Positions 6,953 through 45,756 of a stretch of 64,000 nt of DNA are shown here, in pieces. The position numbers and the translations under genes were made by a program. The stretch lies in the NCBI RefSeq assembly GCF_022846255.1, contig NZ_AP025682.1, one strand, 5' to 3'. The notes beneath the pieces are model-generated. The model was not told the DNA's origin. It did no database searches and saw only the letters and a list, made by a program, of their open reading frames with translations. Source of the DNA: Escherichia coli (GTDB taxonomy: Bacteria > Pseudomonadota > Gammaproteobacteria > Enterobacterales > Enterobacteriaceae). The first letter of the stretch is position 1. Each line of letters opens with the position of its first letter.

Positions 6953-7130
6953 GCCGAACTCTCCGTTACATAACGTAAAGGCATTGTATCGCAGAAAAAT
7001 ATTTACGGGAGATGTAAAGCAAATTAAGTGAACTAATGCGCAACAAAAACGCAACAATAGTACAGGAGGAGAAAAAAAGGTGCGCCAGGAGACGCACCAG
7101 TTGTTGCAAAATCAGCACTGTGGGGCGTAA

Positions 7131-15039: not shown

Positions 15040-15061
15040 GCGCTCCACGGAGCGCCTTTTT
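15040..15061 (+). terminator. Rho-independent terminator after malG (ggcgctccacggagcgcc + T7)
   Basis: Perfect 7-bp stem GC hairpin followed by ttttttt at 15055..15061, lying in the 94-bp convergent spacer between malG and psiE. Confidence 0.65.
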
Positions 15062-15472
15062 TTACTCCCGCTTCAGCCGTTTCGAATTACATAACCACAG
15101 GGTGATCACCAGTAACAGGATCGCAGCCGAGTAGATCAACACATCCAGTGGCGATTTATGATCGACGATGATCAAGCGCACAATGGCGGTGATCCCAATA
15201 TAGACAAAGTAACGTAGCGGGAAGTGAAAACCGGACTGAAAGTACTTCACAATCAGCGCGATAAATTCGAAATAGAGAAAGTAAACCACCAGCCCTTCTA
15301 CCAGCTCATATTTGCTGGTTTGTTCTGGCGCGAACAGCACATCAGCCAGATGCACCGTTTCTTTGCCGAGGAAGACAACCAAAATCAGGCCGAGGCACAG
15401 CAGGCCAAGATTGAGTACGGTCTGCAAAATGGTGGAGATAAACTCCACGCGCGGACGAGAGAGTGACGTCAT
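15062..15472 (-). CDS. psiE: Phosphate-starvation-inducible inner membrane protein PsiE, 136 aa
   Basis: ORF track 15062..15601; start moved to [38 protein letters not shown] matching remembered PsiE; 4-TM protein. Confidence 0.9.
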
Positions 15473-23857: not shown

Positions 23858-23859
23858 AC

Positions 23860-23897
23860 ACAGTATGGCCCGGAAGACATTATTTCGGGCCGTATTG
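23860..23897 (+). terminator. Rho-independent terminator after lysC
   Basis: Hairpin ggcccggaagacattatttcgggcc followed by gtattgttttt. Confidence 0.6.
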
Positions 23898-24109
23898 TTT
23901 TTCTTGTCATTATGCCCATAAATAAACGAGTCTATTCCCTGTTAACCAGCGTCTTTATCGGAGAATAATTGCCTTTAATTTTTTATCCGCATCTCTAACT
24001 AATTATCGAAAGAGATAAATAGTTAAGAGAAGGCAAAATGAATATTATCAGTTCTGCTCGCAAACGAATTCCCGTACACTGAACTCTCTGGCTCACTGAG
24101 GGCACCATC

Positions 24110-24382
24110 ATGGCACTCCCCCGTATTACCCAAAAAGAGATGACTGAACGCGAGCAGCGTGAACTTAAAACACTGCTGGATCGGGCGCGGATTGCGCATG
24201 GTCGCGTACTGACCAACTCCGAAACTAACAGCATTAAGAAAGAGTACATCGATAAATTAATGGTCGAGCGTGAGGCTGAAGCGAAAAAAGCCCGCCAATT
24301 GAAGAAAAAGCAGGCTTATAAACCGGATCCTGAGGCGTCATTTAGCTGGTCAGCAAATACGTCGACGCGCGGCAGGCGCTGA
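24110..24382 (+). CDS. yjbD: YjbD, DUF3811 family protein, 90 aa
   Basis: Translation MALPRITQKEMTEREQRELKTLLDRARIAHGRVLTNSETNSIKKEYIDKLMVEREAEAKKARQLKKKQAYKPDPEASFSWSANTSTRGRR. Confidence 0.85.
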   Translation: MALPRITQKEMTEREQRELKTLLDRARIAHGRVLTNSETNSIKKEYIDKLMVEREAEAKKARQLKKKQAYKPDPEASFSWSANTSTRGRR

Positions 24383-25255
24383 TTAACGCCCCTTCTTTTT
24401 GCGCCCCGGCGAGGTAAAACGCTTACCGTTGGACGCCGGGCGACCGCCTTTTTCCGCCGTTTTTTCCATCTTAACGACTGGACGTTTGATGCCTACCGTT
24501 TTCGGTTTGGCCTTCGCTTTAGGTTTTGCCTCGGAAGAGGAATTTTCAATGAGCTTAAAGAGATCGATTAACTCATCGTCGGTTAAATCGCGCCACTCAC
24601 CCAGCGGAATGCCGCTTAAGCTGACGTTCATAATGCGCGTACGTTCCAGCTTTTTCACTTCGTAACCAAAGTGCTCGCACATGCGACGAATCTGACGGTT
24701 CAGCCCCTGCACCAGGGTAATGCGGAAGACAAACGGTGCTTCTTTTTTGACTTTGCACTTTTTAGTTACTGTCCCGAGGATCGGCACTCCCGCCCCCATA
24801 CCACGAATAAATTCATCGGTAATCGGTTTATCAACCGTCACCAGATACTCTTTCTCATGATCGTTACCCGCACGGAGGATCTTATTCACCAGATCGCCGT
24901 GATTGGTGAGGAAAATCAGCCCCTGGGAATCTTTATCCAGGCGGCCAATCGGGAACACGCGTTTGCTGTGGTTAACGAAATCGACAATGTTATCGCGCTC
25001 GCCATCTTCGGTGGTGCTGACAATACCGACGGGCTTGTTCAGGGCGATAAGTACCAAATCTTCGGATTCCCGAGGCTCAATCAACTGACCGTTTACTTTC
25101 ACAACGTCGCCGGGTTTCACCTGATCGCCAATGGTGGCTCGCTTGCCATTAAGGAACACATTGCCTTGCTCGATATAGCGATCCGCTTCGCGGCGTGAGC
25201 AAATTCCGCTTTCGCTGATGTATTTATTTAAACGGACTGATGAGTCGGGCAGCAT
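24383..25255 (-). CDS. rluF: 23S rRNA pseudouridine(2604) synthase RluF, 290 aa
   Basis: S4 RNA-binding N-terminus ([34 protein letters not shown]) and RsuA-type catalytic motif ([17 protein letters not shown]); Lys-rich C-terminal tail. Confidence 0.9.
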
Positions 25256-25602
25256 AAATTCTCCTGTAAAACGCGGAATATACCGTACCTCTTAGCGGGG
25301 AAAAACAGGGTTATGCGGCAACGTCGAAATTAAATGTGATCTGCCACGCCTTTTATCACAAAAGTGTCTCCGGAAGTACGATGCAAATTTGCCTGGCAAA
25401 ATAAGAATAATCAACAAATTACGAATCGCTGCACACCTGTGCTGATGACTACTACGCAGAGAAACAAATGTGCAAGAGAAAGCGCTATTTCCCCCCATGC
25501 AAAGAGTGAAAAATCGCTTTGAAAGGCCATCATGATGGGGTTATATCAGATCAAGCGGTGAGAACGCGTATTTGCACAAATGTGCAGAACCAGGAGGCGG
25601 CA

Positions 25603-26550
25603 ATGGAAAACAGTGACGATATCCGTTTGATTGTGAAGATTGCCCAACTCTATTACGAACAGGATATGACGCAGGCGCAAATTGCGCGCGAACTGGGTAT
25701 TTACCGCACCACCATCAGCCGCTTGCTTAAACGAGGCCGCGATCAGGGAATTGTCACCATCGCCATCAACTATGACTACAACGAAAATCTCTGGCTGGAG
25801 CAGCAAGTGAAGCAAAAGTTTGGCCTGAAAGACGTTGTGGTGGTGTCAGGAAATGATGAGGATGAAGATACTCAACTGGCGATGATGGGGTTACACGGCG
25901 CGCAACTGCTGGATCGCTTGCTGGAACCTGGCGATATTGTCGGTTTTTCCTGGGGCCGCGCGGTGAGCGCACTGGTTGAAAACTTGCCGCAGGCGGGGCA
26001 ATCGCGGCAGTTAATTTGCGTGCCGATTATTGGCGGCCCGTCCGGTAAACTCGAAAGCCGCTATCACGTAAACACATTAACCTACAGCGCGGCAGCGAAG
26101 CTGAAAGGGGAATCGCATCTCGCGGATTTTCCGGCTCTGCTGGATAACCCATTAATTCGTAATGGGATCATGCAGTCTCAGCACTTTAAAACCATCTCTG
26201 CCTACTGGGATAATCTGGATGTCGCCCTGGTGGGAATTGGCTCACCGGCCATTCGCGACGGCGCTAACTGGCATGCGTTTTATGGTGGTGAAGAGAGTGA
26301 CGACCTGAATGCCCGCCAGGTTGCTGGCGATATTTGCTCGCGCTTTTTTGATATTCACGGCGCAATGGTTGAAACGAATATGAGCGAAAAAACACTCTCT
26401 ATCGAAATGAATAAATTAAAGCAGGCACGGTATTCCATTGGCATTGCCATGAGCGAAGAAAAATACAGCGGAATTGTTGGTGCACTGCGTGGAAAATATA
26501 TTAATTGTCTGGTAACGAATAGCAGCACAGCTGAACTATTACTGAAATAA
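25603..26550 (+). CDS. sorC: SorC-family transcriptional regulator of the L-sorbose operon, 315 aa
   Basis: ORF track 25519..26550; ATG at 25603 preceded by caggagg; N-terminal HTH (MTQAQIARELGIYRTTISRLLKRGR) plus sugar-phosphate-binding domain; heads a sorCDFBAME-like gene set. Confidence 0.85.
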   Translation: MENSDDIRLIVKIAQLYYEQDMTQAQIARELGIYRTTISRLLKRGRDQGIVTIAINYDYNENLWLEQQVKQKFGLKDVVVVSGNDEDEDTQLAMMGLHGAQLLDRLLEPGDIVGFSWGRAVSALVENLPQAGQSRQLICVPIIGGPSGKLESRYHVNTLTYSAAAKLKGESHLADFPALLDNPLIRNGIMQSQHFKTISAYWDNLDVALVGIGSPAIRDGANWHAFYGGEESDDLNARQVAGDICSRFFDIHGAMVETNMSEKTLSIEMNKLKQARYSIGIAMSEEKYSGIVGALRGKYINCLVTNSSTAELLLK

Positions 26551-26619
26551 AAATCTTCCCGATGTTTACCGTAATAAAAATTACGGCGGGTCCCTATTAT
26601 CTAAAATCAGGAGTCTGTT

Positions 26620-27426
26620 ATGCAAACGTGGTTAAATTTGCAGGATAAAATCATTATTGTCACCGGTGGCGCATCCGGTATTGGTCTGGCGATTGTAGAG
26701 GAATTATTAGCACAAGGCGCAAACGTACAGATGGTCGATATTCACGGTGGCGATGGTCAATATGAAGGTCATAAAGGCTATCAGTTTTGGCCGACCGATA
26801 TTTCCAGCGCCAAAGAGGTAAATCATACGGTAGCGGAAATTATCCAGCGTTTTGGTCGCATCGACGGTCTGGTCAATAACGCCGGGGTCAATTTCCCGCG
26901 TCTGCTGATCGACGAGAAAGCGCCTGCCGGGCAGTATGAACTCAACGAAGCTGCATTCGAAAAAATGGTCAATATCAACCAGAAAGGCGTTTTTCTGATG
27001 TCGCAGGCGGTGGCGCGACAGATGGTCAAACAACATGATGGCGTGATTGTGAATGTTTCCTCAGAAAGTGGGCTGGAAGGCTCAGAAGGCCAAAGCTGTT
27101 ACGCCGCGACCAAAGCCGCGCTCAATAGCTTCACGCGCTCCTGGTCGAAAGAGCTGGGTAAGCACGGTATCCGTGTGGTCGGTATCGCGCCAGGGATTCT
27201 GGAAAAAACAGGACTGCGCACGCCGGAATATGAAGAAGCGCTGGCGTGGACGCGCAATATCACCGTCGAGCAGCTGCGTGAAGGCTATACCAAAAATTCC
27301 ATTCCTATTGGGCGCGCCGGAAGATTAGCAGAAGTGGCTGATTTTGTTTGTTATCTGCTGTCTGAACGCGCCAGCTATATCACCGGAGTAACCACTAACA
27401 TTGCGGGCGGCAAAACGCGCGGCTAA
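26620..27426 (+). CDS. sorD: Sorbitol-6-phosphate 2-dehydrogenase-like short-chain dehydrogenase (SorD), 268 aa
   Basis: SDR Rossmann motif TGGASGIGLA and catalytic YxxxK (SCYAATKAALNSF); position after sorC. Confidence 0.8.
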   Translation: MQTWLNLQDKIIIVTGGASGIGLAIVEELLAQGANVQMVDIHGGDGQYEGHKGYQFWPTDISSAKEVNHTVAEIIQRFGRIDGLVNNAGVNFPRLLIDEKAPAGQYELNEAAFEKMVNINQKGVFLMSQAVARQMVKQHDGVIVNVSSESGLEGSEGQSCYAATKAALNSFTRSWSKELGKHGIRVVGIAPGILEKTGLRTPEYEEALAWTRNITVEQLREGYTKNSIPIGRAGRLAEVADFVCYLLSERASYITGVTTNIAGGKTRG

Positions 27427-27435
27427 GGAGGCTTT

Positions 27436-27843
27436 ATGGTCAACGCCATTTTTTGTGCGCATGGCAAATTAGCTTGCGCCATGCTGGAATCGGTTCAGAT
27501 GGTGTACGGCGATGCCAGGGTCGAGGCCGTTGAATTTGTGCCCGGCGAGAACGCCGGAGACATTGTGGCAAAGCTGGAGAAGTTAGTAAGCATTCACAAT
27601 CAAGATAAGTGGCTAATCGCCGTGGATTTACAGTGCGGCAGCCCGTGGAATGCGGCAGCGATGCTTGCGATGCGCAATCCTCGTCTGCGGGTAATCAGCG
27701 GCCTTTCTCTGCCGCTGGCGCTCGAACTGGTTGATAACCAGGACAGCATGAATGTTGATGAACTGTGTGAACACCTGACGCAAATCGCAAAGCAAACCTG
27801 CGTCGTCTGGAGACAGGTGGCAACAGCAGAGGAGGATTTCTGA
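27436..27843 (+). CDS. sorF: PTS mannose-family EIIA component for L-sorbose (SorF), 135 aa
   Basis: N-terminal AHGKLA region typical of EIIA-Man phosphohistidine domain; size and operon position. Confidence 0.85.
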   Translation: MVNAIFCAHGKLACAMLESVQMVYGDARVEAVEFVPGENAGDIVAKLEKLVSIHNQDKWLIAVDLQCGSPWNAAAMLAMRNPRLRVISGLSLPLALELVDNQDSMNVDELCEHLTQIAKQTCVVWRQVATAEEDF

Positions 27844-28337
27844 TGAACATTACGCTCGCCCGCATTGATGACCGCCTGATCCACGGCCAGGTCACTACCG
27901 TCTGGTCTAAAGTGGCTAACGCCCAACGCATTATTATCTGCAATGACGAAGTTTATAACGATGAAGTTCGCCGGACATTATTGCGTCAGGCTGCGCCACC
28001 GGGAATGAAGGTTAACGTGGTCAATATTGAAAAAGCCGTCGCGGTTTATCACAACCCGCAATATCAGGACGAAACCGTTTTTTATCTTTTCACTCGCCCA
28101 CAAGATGCCTTAGCAATGGTTCGCCAGGGGGTAAAAATAGGTACCCTGAATATTGGCGGTATGGCCTGGCGTCCTGGTAAGAAACAGTTAACCAAAGCAG
28201 TTTCATTAGATGACGATGATATTAACGCATTTCATGAGTTAAATAATCTTGGCGTCATACTGGATTTACGCGTCGTAGCGTCAGATCCCTCAATCAATAT
28301 TATCGACAAAATAAACGAACAGTTAATCGCAAATTAA
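27843..28337 (+). CDS. sorB: PTS mannose-family EIIB component for L-sorbose (SorB), 164 aa
   Basis: Conserved N-terminus RIDDRLIHGQV of EIIB-Man family; start overlaps sorF stop (ATGA). Confidence 0.85.
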   Translation: MNITLARIDDRLIHGQVTTVWSKVANAQRIIICNDEVYNDEVRRTLLRQAAPPGMKVNVVNIEKAVAVYHNPQYQDETVFYLFTRPQDALAMVRQGVKIGTLNIGGMAWRPGKKQLTKAVSLDDDDINAFHELNNLGVILDLRVVASDPSINIIDKINEQLIAN

Positions 28338-28402
28338 ATAATAGCGCCTGTGTACATATGCTTTAACAGGCAGGGATGACGACACTTAAAAGGTGACAAA
28401 TT

Positions 28403-29200
28403 ATGGAAATAAGTACCCTACAAATCATTGCTATATTTCTTTTTTCCTGTATTGCCGGAATGGGCAGCGTGCTGGATGAATTTCAGACTCATCGTCCGTT
28501 AATTGCCTGTACGGTGATTGGCTTAATTCTCGGTGATTTAAAAACCGGAATTATGCTCGGTGGTACGCTGGAATTGATAGCTCTCGGCTGGATGAACGTC
28601 GGCGCGGCGCAATCTCCGGATTCTGCACTCGCCAGCATAATCTCCGCCATTCTGGTTATCGTTGGTCAGCAAAGCATCGCCACCGGAATCGCCATCGCGT
28701 TGCCTGTGGCTGCGGCAGGCCAGGTGCTGACGGTGTTTGCCCGTACCATCACCGTAGTGTTCCAGCACGCGGCGGATAAAGCAGCGGAAGAAGCACGGTT
28801 TCGCACTCTCGATATTCTGCATGTCTCCGCGCTTGGCGTGCAGGCACTGCGCGTTGCTATTCCGGCACTGATTGTCTCGCTGTTCGTCAGCGCTGATATG
28901 GTGAGCAATATGCTGAGCGCCATTCCCGAATTTGTGACCCGTGGGCTGCAGATTGCTGGCGGTTTTATCGTGGTGGTCGGTTACGCCATGGTGCTTCGCA
29001 TGATGGGCGTGAAATATTTGATGCCTTTCTTTTTCCTCGGTTTCCTCGCAGGTGGCTACCTCGATCTCAGTCTGCTGGCGTTCGGTGGCGTCGGCGTGAT
29101 CATGGCCCTGCTCTACATCCAGTTAAATCCACAGTGGCGTAAAGCTGAACCACATCCCCAGACCACCACTATCACCGCCCTTGACCAACTTGATGATTAA
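28403..29200 (+). CDS. sorA: PTS mannose-family EIIC component for L-sorbose (SorA), 265 aa
   Basis: Multi-TM permease with EIIC-Man-like length, between EIIB and EIID genes. Confidence 0.85.
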   Translation: MEISTLQIIAIFLFSCIAGMGSVLDEFQTHRPLIACTVIGLILGDLKTGIMLGGTLELIALGWMNVGAAQSPDSALASIISAILVIVGQQSIATGIAIALPVAAAGQVLTVFARTITVVFQHAADKAAEEARFRTLDILHVSALGVQALRVAIPALIVSLFVSADMVSNMLSAIPEFVTRGLQIAGGFIVVVGYAMVLRMMGVKYLMPFFFLGFLAGGYLDLSLLAFGGVGVIMALLYIQLNPQWRKAEPHPQTTTITALDQLDD

Positions 29201-29210
29201 CGGAGCCATC

Positions 29211-30035
29211 ATGGAACAGAGAAAAATTACACGCAGCGATCTGGTGAGCATGTTTCTGCGCTCCAACCTGCAACAGGCGTCCTTTAACTTTGAACGTATT
29301 CACGGGCTGGGTTTTTGCTACGACATGATCCCCGCCATCAAGCGACTTTACCCATTAAAAGAGGATCAGGTTGCGGCGCTCAGGCGACACCTGGTGTTCT
29401 TCAATACCACGCCAGCCGTATGTGGCCCGGTCATCGGCGTCACTGCCGCCATGGAAGAGGCGCGGGCCAACGGCGCGGAAATTGATGACGGTACCATTAA
29501 CGGCATCAAAGTCGGTCTGATGGGACCATTGGCAGGAGTTGGCGATCCACTGGTCTGGGGAACGCTGCGCCCGATTACCGCCGCGCTCGGCGCATCTCTG
29601 GCACTTTCGGGCAACATTCTCGGCCCGCTGCTGTTTTTCTTTATTTTCAACGCGGTGCGTCTGGCGATGAAGTGGTATGGCCTACAACTCGGCTTTCGCA
29701 AAGGGGTGAATATCGTCAGCGATATGGGCGGTAATTTGCTGCAAAAACTCACCGAAGGCGCGTCGATTCTCGGACTGTTTGTGATGGGCGTGCTGGTGAC
29801 CAAATGGACGTCAATCAACGTACCGTTGGTGGTTTCACAAACGCATGCCGCCGATGGCTCCACCGTCACCATGACCGTGCAGAACATTCTCGACCAACTT
29901 TGCCCTGGTTTGCTGGCGCTCGGTCTGACGCTACTGATGGTTCGTCTGCTCAACAAAAAAATTAACCCGGTATGGCTGATTTTCGCCCTGTTTGGCTTAG
30001 GGATTATCGGCAATGCGCTGGGCTTCCTGTCCTGA
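29211..30035 (+). CDS. sorM: PTS mannose-family EIID component for L-sorbose (SorM), 274 aa
   Basis: ORF track 29181..30035; ATG at 29211 after cggag SD; EIID-Man-like hydrophilic N-terminus then TM segments. Confidence 0.85.
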   Translation: MEQRKITRSDLVSMFLRSNLQQASFNFERIHGLGFCYDMIPAIKRLYPLKEDQVAALRRHLVFFNTTPAVCGPVIGVTAAMEEARANGAEIDDGTINGIKVGLMGPLAGVGDPLVWGTLRPITAALGASLALSGNILGPLLFFFIFNAVRLAMKWYGLQLGFRKGVNIVSDMGGNLLQKLTEGASILGLFVMGVLVTKWTSINVPLVVSQTHAADGSTVTMTVQNILDQLCPGLLALGLTLLMVRLLNKKINPVWLIFALFGLGIIGNALGFLS

Positions 30036-30086
30036 TTCTTCGCCCCGGCACGACTGCCGGGGCCATCGCTCAACATGAGGTGGTTT

Positions 30087-31316
30087 ATGAAAACAACAGC
30101 TCTGCGTCTTTATGGCAAACGTGACCTGCGTCTGGAAACCTTTGACCTTCCTGAAATGCAGGAGGATGAAATCCTCGCAACGGTGGTCACTGACAGCCTG
30201 TGCCTCTCTTCCTGGAAAGAGGCCAATCTGGGTGAAAACCATAAAAAAGTACCCGACGATGTGGCGACCAATCCCATCATCATCGGCCACGAATTTTGCG
30301 GCGATATTCTGGCCGTGGGTAAAAAGTGGCAGCACAAATTCCAGCCGGGTCAGCGTTATGTGATTCAGGCCAACCTGCAACTCCCCGACCGCCCGGATTG
30401 CCCCGGCTACTCCTTCCCGTGGGTAGGCGGCGAAGCGACGCATGTGGTTATTCCCAACGAGGTCATGGAACATGATTGCCTGCTGGCATACGACGGCGAA
30501 ACCTATTTTGAAGGCTCGCTGGTTGAACCGCTTTCCTGCGTGATTGGCGCGTTCAACGCCAACTATCATCTTCAGGAAGGTAGTTATAACCACACGATGG
30601 GGATTCGCCCGCAAGGGCGCACGCTGATACTCGGCGGCACCGGCCCGATGGGGCTGCTGGCGATTGATTATGCGCTACATGGACCCGTTAACCCGTCGCT
30701 GCTCGTCATTACCGATACCGACAACGACAAATTGAGTTATGCACGCAAGCACTATCCATCAGAACCACAAACACTGATTCATTATCTCAATGCCGCCGAT
30801 GCAGCATTTGATACGTTAATGGCACTGAGTGGCGGTCACGGCTTCGATGATATTTTCGTCTTTGTGCCTAATGAAGGACTGGTGACTCTCGCCTCTTCCT
30901 TGCTGGCGACAGATGGTTGTCTGAATTTCTTCGCCGGACCGCAGGATAAGCACTTCAGCGCGCCAATTAATTTCTACGATGTGCATTATGCATTTACCCA
31001 CTACGTGGGCACGTCAGGCGGCAATACCGACGACATGCGCGCAGCGGTCAAATTGATTGAAGAGAAAAAAGTGCAGGCCGCAAAAGTGGTAACACATATT
31101 CTTGGGCTGAATGCCGCGGGCGAAACCACGCTTGAATTGCCTGCCGTCGGCGGCGGCAAAAAGCTGGTGTATACCGGGAAATACCTGCCGCTGACGTCAC
31201 TCACGCAGATTCAGGATCAAGCACTGGCGGTGATTCTGGCGCATCATCAGGGGATCTGGTCCGGTGAGGCGGAGCAATACCTGCTCGCCCATGCAGAGGC
31301 AATTTCCCATGATTAA
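30087..31316 (+). CDS. sorE: Sorbose-1-phosphate reductase-like zinc-dependent alcohol dehydrogenase family protein (SorE), 409 aa
   Basis: ORF track 30075..31316; ATG at 30087 after gaggtgg; MDR/zinc-ADH-like sequence (GHEFCGDIL, Rossmann GGTGPMG). Confidence 0.8.
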   Translation: MKTTALRLYGKRDLRLETFDLPEMQEDEILATVVTDSLCLSSWKEANLGENHKKVPDDVATNPIIIGHEFCGDILAVGKKWQHKFQPGQRYVIQANLQLPDRPDCPGYSFPWVGGEATHVVIPNEVMEHDCLLAYDGETYFEGSLVEPLSCVIGAFNANYHLQEGSYNHTMGIRPQGRTLILGGTGPMGLLAIDYALHGPVNPSLLVITDTDNDKLSYARKHYPSEPQTLIHYLNAADAAFDTLMALSGGHGFDDIFVFVPNEGLVTLASSLLATDGCLNFFAGPQDKHFSAPINFYDVHYAFTHYVGTSGGNTDDMRAAVKLIEEKKVQAAKVVTHILGLNAAGETTLELPAVGGGKKLVYTGKYLPLTSLTQIQDQALAVILAHHQGIWSGEAEQYLLAHAEAISHD

Positions 31317-31475
31317 TCGCGCTACTTAACTCTGCATGTCGCTGGCTGGTCGCCGCGGCAACTTCGCGACCTGATGTGCGGCTGATTGCTGAAGCGGCAC
31401 AATGTGCACGAGAAGGATAAAAAAACATCAGCGCCTTAAGGGGCGCTCAAATTGGTGGCAAAGTGCACATTGTTT

Positions 31476-31574
31476 ATGCCGGATACGGAATGAAGCCTTA
31501 TCCGGCCTACATAATCTTGAAAATTCAATATATTGCAGTTATCTGGTAGGCCAGGTAAGCGTAGCGCATCAGGC
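31476..31574. repeat. REP/BIME units between sorE and pepE
   Basis: atgccggatacggaatgaagccttatccggcctac and ggtaggccaggtaagcgtagcgcatcaggca. Confidence 0.7.
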
Positions 31575-31697
31575 AATCCTGTGTTTGTCATCAGTCTCAG
31601 CGCCTGTGCAATATGTGACATCGTGAGCCATGTCAGTAAGTGGTTAAATTCGCAGTGGTAGCATTCCTTCCGTGTTTTCTTACTAACCGGAGAAGTA

Positions 31698-32387
31698 ATG
31701 GAACTGCTTTTATTGAGTAACTCGACGCTGCCGGGTAAAGCCTGGCTGGAACACGCGCTGCCGCTGATTGCTGAACAGTTGCAGGGTCGCCGTTCTGCGG
31801 TATTTATTCCTTTCGCTGGCGTAACGCAGACCTGGGATGATTACACAGCGAAAACGGCTGCGGTTCTCGCTCCGCTGGGTGTTTCTGTCACCGGTATTCA
31901 TAGCGTTGTCGATCCCGTTGCCGCGATTGAAAATGCGGAAATTGTGATTGTCGGCGGCGGTAATACTTTCCAGTTGCTGAAACAGTGCCGCGAGCGCGGG
32001 CTGCTGGCACCCATTACTGACGTGGTGAAACGTGGCGCGCTGTATATTGGCTGGAGCGCAGGCGCTAACCTTGCTTGCCCAACCATTCGTACCACCAACG
32101 ATATGCCGATTGTCGATCCGCAAGGTTTCGATGCGCTAAATCTGTTCCCGCTGCAAATCAACCCGCACTTCACCAACGCGCTGCCGGAAGGCCATAAAGG
32201 TGAAACCCGTGAGCAGCGTATTCGCGAACTGCTGGTCGTCGCGCCAGAACTGACGATTATTGGTCTGCCGGAAGGTAACTGGATCACAGTAAGTAAAGGT
32301 CACGCTACGCTGGGTGGCCCGAACACCACTTATGTGTTTAAGGCTGGTGAAGAAGCGGTGCCGCTGGAAGCGGGTCACCGTTTTTAA
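31698..32387 (+). CDS. pepE: Alpha-aspartyl dipeptidase PepE (peptidase E), 229 aa
   Basis: Translation [50 protein letters not shown]; S51 peptidase with Ser nucleophile context GWSAGAN. Confidence 0.92.
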
Positions 32388-32425
32388 GTGAATTGCCGGA
32401 TACATGATCCGGCATCTTGTTCATA

Positions 32426-32461
32426 GTGCCTGATGCGACGCTTTACGCGTCTTATCAGGCC
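32426..32461. repeat. Single REP unit between pepE and yjbB
   Basis: gtgcctgatgcgacgctttacgcgtcttatcaggcc. Confidence 0.65.
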
Positions 32462-32476
32462 TTCAGGGTCACGGTA

Positions 32477-34108
32477 TTAATACTCGTCCCGTCCTTCATC
32501 TTCATCCGGCTGTTCCAGCACACTGTAAGCCACCGAACAAAACAGCGAGTTCAGACGCTGCATATCTCCCAGTAAGCCTAAATGTAGCGAACTGGTTTCA
32601 ATACTCTGCACGTTTTGCTGGTGCAGGCGATCGACGTGGGCGTGGGAATAGCGGCGATTAAGAATGCGAAAACGATGTTTGCTGCGGCGCAAACGACGGG
32701 CGCTGGTAACATCGCCAGAGAAGAAAACCGACATTGCCAGTTTTAAATTACTGAGCAATTGCTCATAGAGCGCATCCAGTTCCTTCAAGCCATCAAGCGA
32801 AAATGCTCGCCTTGCTGCCAGCGATTTGTCGGCAATTTCACTCCCCATGCGCTCGACGATATCGGAGGCCTGTTCAAGGTTGAGCGACATTTCGATGATC
32901 TCCGCCCAGCGGCGCGACTCTTCTTCTGCCAGTTCCTCTTTTGGCATCCGCGCCAGATACAGCTTAATGGCGGTATAGAGAACGTTGATGTCATCAGCCA
33001 GCTTACGCAGCTCTTTCTCCTGCCGTGGCTCGCCGTGCATCACTTTATTCAGCCCTTCCATCATCTGTTCCATGGCGTCGCCAATGCGCAGGGTTTCGCG
33101 GGCAGCGTTCGCCAGAGCAAGCGTGGGCGTATCCAGCGCGCTGACATCCAGATGTTTAGGCCGTAGCTGGGTATCCAGTTCCGGTTCATCGCGAATAATC
33201 GTTTTGCAAAACCGTGCCATCGGGTCAACGAATGGCAACATGACCAGGCAGCGTACAAGGTTGTAGAAGACGTGGAAATAGATCACCAATTCCGCTTTTG
33301 GCAATGGCAACTTCCCCATTGTCTCTGCCAGCAAATGAACAAACGGCAGGATAATCAGGCTACCCACCAGCTTAAACAGCAGGCTACCCAGCGCGACACG
33401 GCGGGCTGCGGCATTGGCGGCACTGTTGTTGAGCATCGCCAGCAGGCCGGAACCGAGGTTTGCACCAATCACCAGACAAAGCGCCACTGGGAAAGAGATA
33501 ATGCCTGCGGCGGTCAGAGTCGCGGTCAGCAGTACCGCGGCAAGGCTGGAGTAGCTGATAATGGCGAACATCGCACCAATCAGCGCATCCAGCAAAATGT
33601 CGCCAGTCAGCGAGGCAAAGATCACCTGAACGCCGTTTGCCTGAGTGATCGGCGTTACGGCCTGCACAATCAACTCCAGCGCCAGTAAAATCAGCCCAAG
33701 ACCAATACCGACGCGGCCCAGTTGCCCGGCGCGTGACTGTTTGCGTCCGAGGAAAAAAATCACGCCGATAAAAATAAGTAACGGTGACAGCCAGGATAAA
33801 TCGAAGGTGAGAATACGCGCCATCAGCGCCGTCCCGACATCTGCACCCAGCACAATCACCAGCGCAGGCGCGAGAGCAACCAGATCCTGAGCGACGAACG
33901 AGGTCACCAGCATGGTGGTGGCATTACTGCTCTGCACCAGTGCGGTAACGCCTATCCCCGCGCAAAAGGCGAGCGGCTTCTTTTCGACGCTCCGGCTAAG
34001 GACAGTACGCAGACGCGCGCCGAAGACGCGCATTACGCCTGTTCGAACAATATGAGTCCCCCAGACCAGCAGGGCGACGGCAGAAAGCAGGTGAAGCAGC
34101 GTTAACAC
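32477..34108 (-). CDS. yjbB: Na+/phosphate symporter family protein YjbB, 543 aa
   Basis: Multi-TM N-terminal half plus PhoU-like C-terminal domain; length and position match remembered yjbB. Confidence 0.88.
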   Translation of the reverse strand: MLTLLHLLSAVALLVWGTHIVRTGVMRVFGARLRTVLSRSVEKKPLAFCAGIGVTALVQSSNATTMLVTSFVAQDLVALAPALVIVLGADVGTALMARILTFDLSWLSPLLIFIGVIFFLGRKQSRAGQLGRVGIGLGLILLALELIVQAVTPITQANGVQVIFASLTGDILLDALIGAMFAIISYSSLAAVLLTATLTAAGIISFPVALCLVIGANLGSGLLAMLNNSAANAAARRVALGSLLFKLVGSLIILPFVHLLAETMGKLPLPKAELVIYFHVFYNLVRCLVMLPFVDPMARFCKTIIRDEPELDTQLRPKHLDVSALDTPTLALANAARETLRIGDAMEQMMEGLNKVMHGEPRQEKELRKLADDINVLYTAIKLYLARMPKEELAEEESRRWAEIIEMSLNLEQASDIVERMGSEIADKSLAARRAFSLDGLKELDALYEQLLSNLKLAMSVFFSGDVTSARRLRRSKHRFRILNRRYSHAHVDRLHQQNVQSIETSSLHLGLLGDMQRLNSLFCSVAYSVLEQPDEDEGRDEY

Positions 34109-39035: not shown

Positions 39036-39051
39036 CTTTTTCGCCTCTGAT

Positions 39052-40877
<1,826 letters not shown>

Positions 40878-45190: not shown

Positions 45191-45634
45191 ATGGTTATTA
45201 GTATTCGCCGCTCACGGCATGAGGAGGGGGAGGAACTCGTTGCGATTTGGTGTCGTTCTGTCGATGCCACTCACGATTTTTTATCAGCAGAGTATCGGGC
45301 CGAGCTGGAAGAGCTGGTGCATTCCTTTCTGCCGGAAGCACCGTTGTGGGTCGCGGTTAATGAGCGGGATCAGCCGGTTGGGTTTATGTTGTTAAGTGGG
45401 CAGCATATGGATGCGCTGTTTATCGATCCTGATGTGCGCGGCTGCGGCGTGGGCCGGATGCTGGTGAAGCATGCGCTCTCAATGGCCCCGGAACTGACAA
45501 CCAATGTTAATGAGCAAAATGAGCAGGCGGTTGGGTTCTATAAGAAGGTGGGCTTTAAGGTTACGGAACGCTCTGAGGTGGACGATTTGGGGAAACCGTA
45601 TCCGTTGCTGAATCTGGCATATGTGGGGGAATAA
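45191..45634 (+). CDS. yjaB: GNAT-family N-acetyltransferase YjaB, 147 aa
   Basis: GNAT acetyl-CoA binding motif (RGCGVGRMLVKHAL), size 147 aa, position next to metA. Confidence 0.85.
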   Translation: MVISIRRSRHEEGEELVAIWCRSVDATHDFLSAEYRAELEELVHSFLPEAPLWVAVNERDQPVGFMLLSGQHMDALFIDPDVRGCGVGRMLVKHALSMAPELTTNVNEQNEQAVGFYKKVGFKVTERSEVDDLGKPYPLLNLAYVGE

Positions 45635-45679
45635 GCTGCCCCCTATCGTGCTATCGTGCCTGCGTAAGCTGGAGCAGAC

Positions 45680-45744
45680 GCGCCAGCGTCGCAGCCGGCC
45701 TTTTTCTGCACCAGCGCAAAAAGGCCATCCTGACGGATGGCCTT
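45680..45744. terminator. Convergent terminator region between yjaB and rrfE (rrn operon terminator on minus strand; T-run after GC-rich segment on plus strand)
   Basis: Minus-strand hairpin aaggccatccgtcaggatggcctt followed by tttttgcgc, immediately 3' of 5S rRNA; plus strand ccggcc + ttttt after yjaB. Confidence 0.55.
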
Positions 45745-45756
45745 CTGCTTAATTTG

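Follow-up and report, generated by a model that had tools for sequence, protein, structure and literature searches.

An L-sorbose operon between rluF and pepE in Escherichia coli, probably an ancestral locus lost from K-12-like strains

To understand why some Escherichia coli chromosomes carry a complete sugar uptake operon between two genes that adjoin in K-12, one has to ask what the operon is and whether it was gained by its carriers or lost by K-12. The question is raised by a 64,000-nt stretch of E. coli DNA (RefSeq assembly GCF_022846255.1, contig NZ_AP025682.1; hereafter the window), in which positions 25256–31697 cover exactly the interval that separates the divergently oriented rluF (− strand) from pepE (+ strand), start codon to start codon. 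An initial annotation, made from the sequence alone, had described this block as an accessory L-sorbose phosphotransferase system (PTS) operon, sorCDFBAME, inserted between the two genes. Our analysis makes it highly probable that the block is the chromosomal L-sorbose operon sorCDFBAME, orthologous to that of Klebsiella, and that it is an old resident of the rluF–pepE site which K-12-like strains have lost. The operon is an already-known system; the original finding holds and its coordinates are accurate, but it is an ordinary one.

We analysed the gene content using an open reading frame (ORF) listing, the RefSeq annotation of homologous loci and family searches, and all of these bore out the seven co-directional genes of the families that had been named. 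The ORFs, all on the + strand, occupy 25519–31316. The gene starts in Table 1 were mapped from the RefSeq-annotated locus of E. coli MS10860, which is 99.1% identical to the window and has the same seven genes with zero pseudogene flags; all seven window ORFs are full length, with coordinates matching the annotated intact genes. The regulator was of the SorC/DeoR type in NCBIfam, Pfam and PDB searches, and was 86.3% identical to K. pneumoniae SorC (PDB 2w48; 315/315 residues aligned, E 2e-182). SorB was 86.9% identical over its full length to K. pneumoniae IIB-Sor (PDB 1nrz; E 6e-91). The IIA, IIB, IIC and IID proteins each exceeded the NCBIfam cut-offs for the mannose/fructose/sorbose family, and IIA and IIB are encoded as separate polypeptides, with IIB orthologous to IIB-Sor. 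SorD scored 499.7 bits on the 'sorbitol-6-phosphate dehydrogenase' model NF004817 (cut-off 304), its activity being predicted from the family. For SorE, the Pfam domains ADH_N and ADH_zinc_N confirmed the MDR/zinc-ADH fold family; NCBIfam has no SorE-specific model and returned weak MDR matches, none at its cut-off. Near-identical E. coli proteins are named sorE by RefSeq, and orthologues in the Klebsiella group are 85–86% identical to the window SorE. The gene order C-D-F-B-A-M-E, with the SorC orthologue first, is that of the Klebsiella operon, so that the Klebsiella-type content proposed earlier was upheld. The K. pneumoniae operon was reportedly described by Sprenger and Lengeler, by Woehrl et al. 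in 1990 and by Wehmeier and Lengeler in 1994.

The function of homologous E. coli operons has been studied experimentally. In strain CFT073, the proteins of c4981–c4987 have 82–97% similarity to the Klebsiella Sor proteins (91% for SorE against K. pneumoniae SorE), and a cloned sor fragment enabled DH5alpha to grow on L-sorbose (PMC2831201). We found that the CFT073 cloning primers match the window at 25255–25284 and 31315–31346 with at most two edits each, indicating that the cloning experiment tested essentially this segment. L-Sorbose is used by enteroaggregative E. coli 042 and not by MG1655 (PMC2808357). A 2025 multi-omics study reported induction of the operon by L-sorbose in sequence types (STs) ST131 and ST648, the phenotypes conferred by delta-sorAM and by delta-sorE, and an ST10 knock-in (PMC12817954). 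A mechanism can be drawn from the established Klebsiella work, whose account of the sorbose pathway is restated in PMC13410766, together with genetic work in E. coli. SorF (IIA) and SorB (IIB) would pass phosphate on from HPr, and SorA and SorM (IIC and IID) would import L-sorbose as L-sorbose-1-phosphate, which SorE would reduce to D-glucitol-6-phosphate and SorD would then oxidize to fructose-6-phosphate for entry into glycolysis. SorC would keep the operon repressed without sorbose and activate it with sorbose, probably acting via conserved CACA-N-TGTG boxes in the 347-bp leader.

Whether the operon was inserted or is ancestral was addressed by a scan with SorE as the query and one genome per species, which returned 35 Enterobacterales sor loci. 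rluF lay immediately upstream of sorC in 26 of the 35, and pepE and/or yjbB lay downstream wherever the locus extended far enough. The rluF–sor arrangement was found in E. whittamii, another Escherichia, a divergent 'E. coli', three Pseudocitrobacter, many Citrobacter and five Klebsiella species, as well as in Raoultella, Enterobacter and Cedecea; the E. albertii contig spans the locus only from sorA onward and shows the downstream flank. Five loci reached upstream and had no rluF there (Mangrovibacter, Serratia sp., Entomohabitans, Erwinia and Pantoea). Nucleotide identity to the window was 93.6–100% within E. coli. Per gene, it was 85–95% for sor and 84–96% for the flanks in other Escherichia, and 74–86% for sor and 79–85% for the flanks in Citrobacter and Klebsiella, such that sor divergence keeps pace with the flanks at every phylogenetic distance. 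The block has a GC content of 0.512, compared with 0.528 for the window. No tRNA gene was found in 15000–42000, no transposase or integrase was present in the annotation of the homologous locus, as the initial annotation had noted of integrases, insertion sequence (IS) elements and tRNA targets, and no direct repeat of at least 7 nt was found at the block ends. Thus the marks of a site-specific genomic island (integrase or transposase, tRNA/att site, direct repeats, atypical composition) were not seen, and those of an ancestral locus, the same site in outgroup genera and a divergence matching the flanks, were. We reasoned, because of the cross-genus synteny, the matched divergence and the unremarkable GC, that the sor operon is probably ancestral at rluF–pepE, was present in the Escherichia ancestor, and that K-12 carries a loss. 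The word 'inserted' therefore had the polarity wrong: the same synteny and divergence indicate a locus lost in K-12-like lineages.

The distribution within the species was surveyed in 5,426 complete E. coli genomes, counting as sor-positive those with at least 80% of window 24000–33000. The operon was carried by 2,865 genomes, in agreement with the strain variability described at the outset, and the remainder have rluF beside pepE. The 211-bp empty spacer of K-12, in which the absence of the operon and the adjacency of rluF and pepE were both borne out, was found whole in 2,557 genomes, almost always at ~100% identity. Since the two states sum to 5,422, the site is essentially biallelic. The sor-positive alleles differ by up to ~3%; the empty allele, which is nearly invariant, looks like the product of one event. 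According to published data, all phylogroups have the operon in >86% of their genomes, apart from A (9.6%) and B1 (12%) (PMC12817954). Combined with this distribution, the synteny, divergence, GC and lack of mobility genes make it the parsimonious reading that a single loss of the locus took place in the lineage from which most A and B1 strains descend. K-12-like strains, mostly of these two phylogroups, would then share one loss allele, and homologous recombination in the core genes on either side would presumably swap the sor-positive and empty states.

The empty allele has a more complicated structure than a simple gap. In the alignment made for the breakpoints, homology with K-12 ends after 25290 and resumes at 31608, and an 86-bp filler (L002 2424–2509, compared with window 25291–25330 and 31598–31607) replaces the 6,317 bp in K-12. 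A search of the filler across the whole window gave chance matches of 10–14 nt only. Across all sor-positive loci, counterparts were found for its first ~24 nt (Citrobacter/Klebsiella) and last ~10 nt (Citrobacter and E. coli ECONIH1), with ~46 nt in the middle having no counterpart there. Filler nucleotides 8–31 match Citrobacter at the orthologous rluF offset (19/23 positions, z 4–5), match Klebsiella more weakly (z 1.4–2.2) and have no match in sor-positive Escherichia; the last 10 nt, CTTTCCAGAA, match Citrobacter, and six of these match ECONIH1. The Citrobacter/Klebsiella-like ends indicate that the empty allele did not arise from a window-type haplotype, and the retention of Citrobacter-like bases that all sor-positive Escherichia lack hints at an old two-haplotype history. 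Salmonella enterica has no sor operon at this site, and a DUF2058 gene fills its rluF–pepE interval (L088 5240–5779 and L090 5254–5793); only ~85 nt upstream of pepE align, making it uninformative as an empty site. E. fergusonii-like empty sites were sought via PepE variants 93–94% identical, on two contigs, and none was found, one contig having 35 nt of upstream sequence and the other being an ordinary sor-positive E. coli.

The seven sor genes of the initial annotation stood, but the block also contains, after sorE, a stub of an eighth gene, sdhL. In 28 of the 35 enterobacterial loci, sdhL is intact (270 aa) and its start lies 8 nt ahead of the sorE stop codon; it is also intact in E. whittamii and in eight-gene E. 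coli strains such as ECONIH1, CE10 and JNEC-KY178. Its product scored 455 bits on NCBIfam NF009202 and matched Haemophilus influenzae HI0607/SdhL (PDB 1npy) over 268/270 residues (E 2e-110). In the window stub, the ATG lies across the sorE stop with an overlap of 8 nt, codon 7 is TAA, and 700 bp have been deleted internally (junction 31366|31367), leaving the last 17 codons and the stop codon. Among the 5,426 E. coli genomes, 177 have sdhL at 80% length or more, and the partial matches in unrelated strains all end at nucleotide 58, indicating one shared deletion. In ST648, sdhL was co-induced by sorbose and described as an ST-specific insertion (PMC12817954); contrary to this description, the comparison of sequences indicates that sdhL is the ancestral state. 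A fuller reading, which we regard as possible but rather doubtful, is that sdhL was an ancestral, translationally coupled eighth sor gene, lost in most E. coli by a single 700-bp deletion. If the SdhL substrate were to lie in sorbose or ketohexose metabolism, the sor pathway would have an unrecognised step, for example one catalysed by a ketose/keto-sugar reductase like the shikimate dehydrogenase-family 5-ketofructose reductase (PDB 7cok).

Could the operon nevertheless be a horizontally acquired island, inserted into an originally empty rluF–pepE spacer in the lineage of the window strain? That K-12 and 47% of complete E. coli genomes lack it would fit such an origin, as would the ancestral-looking Citrobacter-like bases that the K-12 spacer retains and sor-positive Escherichia lack, and the Pseudocitrobacter sor genes, which are nearer to E. 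coli than is their downstream flank. However, 26 loci of many genera, including other Escherichia, share both the site and the gene order, the divergence tracks the flanking genes, the GC is unremarkable, and neither integrase, IS, tRNA nor target duplications were seen. It is also the empty allele that is near-invariant and the sor-positive alleles that vary, and every phylogroup but A and B1 is >86% sor-positive (PMC12817954). We therefore consider an insertion very unlikely. Several observations do weigh against an old resident operon simply lost by K-12. The K-12 empty allele is not a clean deletion of a window-type allele, and its history therefore involves more than one haplotype. In Pseudocitrobacter (L005, L007 and L081), the yjbD–rluF–sor segment is 85–93% identical to the window and pepE/yjbB only 81–82%, a pattern that may possibly reflect an old inter-genus exchange, or recombination tract. 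The proposed SorC operators and promoter come from conservation alone, and the expectation that the window strain grows on sorbose is an analogy with homologous E. coli operons.

Two other explanations concern function rather than history, and against both the ancestral sorbose operon remains the preferred reading. That the genes serve some other mannose-family PTS (N-acetylgalactosamine, fructoselysine/glucoselysine or mannose) draws on the breadth of the man/fru/sor family into which the IIA–IID subunits fall and on the weak MDR matches of SorE, for which NCBIfam lacks a specific model. The window proteins were all far under the cut-offs of the Aga and ManX equivalog models in the NCBIfam search (210.8 compared with 400 for the ManX IIAB model), and the top PDB matches were K. 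pneumoniae SorC and IIB-Sor at ~86% identity. As the homologous CFT073 fragment gives growth on L-sorbose (PMC2831201) and the sor genes are the strongest sorbose-induced genes in ST131 and ST648 (PMC12817954), such an identity has next to no probability and is effectively refuted; no rival mannose-family PTS model fits, and the seven genes are absent from the K-12 site, as the initial annotation had expected. It is also very unlikely that the operon is present in the window strain yet phenotypically silent or decaying. The gene on its 3′ side, sdhL, has already decayed to a pseudogene stub, the bovine strain 7_12_30A has a sorM annotated as frameshifted (L086 11211–12034), which fits reports of sorbose-negative strains retaining sor DNA, and Shigella is sorbose-negative despite retained sor DNA (PMC2831201). 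Against this stand the seven full-length ORFs and the intact leader boxes. Moreover, ST131, reported to be without sdhL, shows sorbose induction of the operon and a competitive advantage that is abolished by sorE deletion (PMC12817954). The growth-conferring CFT073 fragment ends at a primer site inside the start of sdhL, which here bears the TAA of the stub, implying that intact sdhL is not needed for sorbose growth.

The leader was analysed further in an alignment of 32 enterobacterial loci covering the 260 nt ahead of sorC. Four boxes of the CACA-N-TGTG type were conspicuously conserved (Table 1), and one of them, the perfect palindrome, sits between the candidate promoter and the ribosome-binding site AGGAGG (25592–25597). 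The promoter blocks CTTTGAA and GGTTATATCAGATCA were conserved across the 32 loci. A consensus promoter scan of the leader called no promoter, the candidate being missed because the last base of its −10 element is C. We propose that the conserved boxes are SorC operators and that TTGAAA-17-TATATC is the promoter. CACAATGTGCAC motifs downstream of sorE were considered as operator copies and rejected, as they are located in the sdhL coding remnant and its 3′ flank.

On the right flank, the GC-rich hairpin after the sdhL stop is a possible operon terminator, with a T-run on the − strand only. A perfect 11-nt inverted repeat, ACAATGTGCAC/GTGCACATTGT at 31399–31409 and 31463–31473, brackets this hairpin, with one arm in the 3′ coding remnant of sdhL. 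The repetitive extragenic palindromic (REP) units described earlier on this flank were confirmed as a pair resembling a bacterial interspersed mosaic element (BIME): a Y-type REP at 31478–31510 (+), a ~35-nt spacer and an inverted Z1-like REP at ~31546–31574. The pair is not at the junction, however, but 33 bp away from the right-hand homology end, within the sor-specific segment; ECONIH1-type alleles lack it, and nothing ties REP to a gain or loss event, contrary to the role suggested for it. E. albertii has ~4 tandem copies of a REP/BIME unit between sdhL and pepE (L039 3543–4206), and its match to sorE exceeds the expected length by 29 nt, suggesting an indel.

Table 1. Positions in the window of the sor locus, its flanking genes and candidate control elements
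Feature	Position	Strand	Basis
rluF, left flanking core gene	24383–25255	−	NCBIfam NF007784, 605.9 bits; RefSeq annotation of homologous locus
rluF–sorC intergenic control region (347-bp leader)	25256–25602	+	Conserved blocks in alignment of 32 enterobacterial sor loci
Segment without K-12 counterpart, 6,317 bp	25291–31607	+	Comparison with K-12
Box TCACAAAAGTGT (ACAC-N4-GTGT), candidate regulator site	25356–25367		Near-invariant in 32 loci
Box GCACACCTGTGC (GCACA-N3-GTGC palindrome), candidate SorC site	25431–25442		32-locus conservation
Box CAAATGTGCA, candidate SorC half-site	25465–25474		32-locus conservation
Candidate sor promoter: −35 TTGAAA (25519–25524), 17-nt spacer, −10 TATATC (25542–25547)	25519–25547	+	Conservation
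Perfect palindrome TGCACAAATGTGCA, candidate SorC operator	25573–25586		Core invariant in 32 loci
sorC, SorC-family regulator, 315 aa	25603–26550	+	K. pneumoniae SorC match (PDB 2w48)
sorD, SDR D-glucitol-6-phosphate dehydrogenase (predicted), 268 aa	26620–27426	+	NCBIfam NF004817
sorF, PTS EIIA (mannose family), 135 aa	27436–27843	+	TIGR00824, 144.4 bits (cut-off 98)
sorB, PTS EIIB-Sor, 164 aa	27843–28337	+	PDB 1nrz match; TIGR00854, 223 bits
sorA, PTS EIIC, 265 aa	28403–29200	+	TIGR00822, 422 bits (cut-off 340)
sorM, PTS EIID, 274 aa	29211–30035	+	TIGR00828, 472 bits (cut-off 293); start from RefSeq
sorE, predicted L-sorbose-1-phosphate reductase (MDR/zinc-ADH family), 409 aa	30087–31316	+	RefSeq naming of near-identical E. 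coli genes; Pfam
sdhL remnant (shikimate-dehydrogenase-like gene)	31309–31420	+	Alignment with intact sdhL of E. whittamii and eight-gene E. coli
GC-rich hairpin AGCGCC-TTAAGG-GGCGCT after sdhL stop	31430–31447		Possible terminator
BIME-like REP pair	31478–31574		Consensus matches; inverted repeat
pepE, right flanking core gene	31698–32387	+	NF003642, 357 bits

In the part of the window compared with K-12 (2101–64000), the sor block is the only gain of >300 bp, although several K-12 segments are missing; its position next to metH, given earlier, holds. The window lacks K-12's SopA-family (yjbI) pseudogene segment, xylE, espL4 (arpA region) and the yjaA segment, the sites of the missing segments being 7058–7072, 15059–15063, 39042–39062 and 45630–45749. 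Thus losses, and not only sor, set the window strain apart from K-12. Where yjbD and rluF converge, K-12 has an additional ~130 bp between their stop codons (L002 1384–1515), and these genes abut in the window (24382/24383). In E2348/69, the closest of the listed genomes, ISEc21 and a degraded IS1397 lie between pepE and yjbB (L085 8978–11697), and the window lacks both. Some E. coli carry a zeta toxin, nucleotidyltransferase and slipin-family block between lysC and yjbD (L086 2694–5580; L003 1–580; L087 1–1273); this three-gene block is absent from the window (23858–24109) and from K-12.

It is worth considering what the polarity means for the wider interpretation of the operon. How sor was 'acquired' by resistant or pathogenic E. 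coli is the question posed in recent papers; the synteny instead indicates a loss by commensal A/B1 lineages. As an accessory catabolic trait, the operon is textbook-level knowledge and has been verified experimentally, and it already serves as a marker that separates the phylogroups rich in extraintestinal pathogenic E. coli from A and B1.

Among known systems, manXYZ and agaBCD/agaVWEF of E. coli share the IIA, IIB, IIC and IID protein families with the window sor genes, but they have a fused IIAB (ManX) or Aga-specific subunits and, unlike the window, lack the SorE and SorD partners and the SorC regulator. SdhL HI0607 (PDB 1npy) represents an orphan class of the shikimate dehydrogenase family, and the eighth gene of related loci is its orthologue; the window, by comparison, retains 112 nt only, and linkage to sor is seen in the Enterobacteriaceae. 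The K. pneumoniae sor operon has seven genes in the same order and orientation as the window, and the nucleotide identity is ~78% (PMC2831201). The Klebsiella-group loci have an intact sdhL after sorE, whereas the window has the stub, and ST648 and other phylogroup F strains likewise keep sdhL intact. In the sor operons of E. coli CFT073 (c4981–c4987) and of ST131 and ST648, the locus, the flanks and the seven-gene architecture are as in the window and nothing substantive differs.

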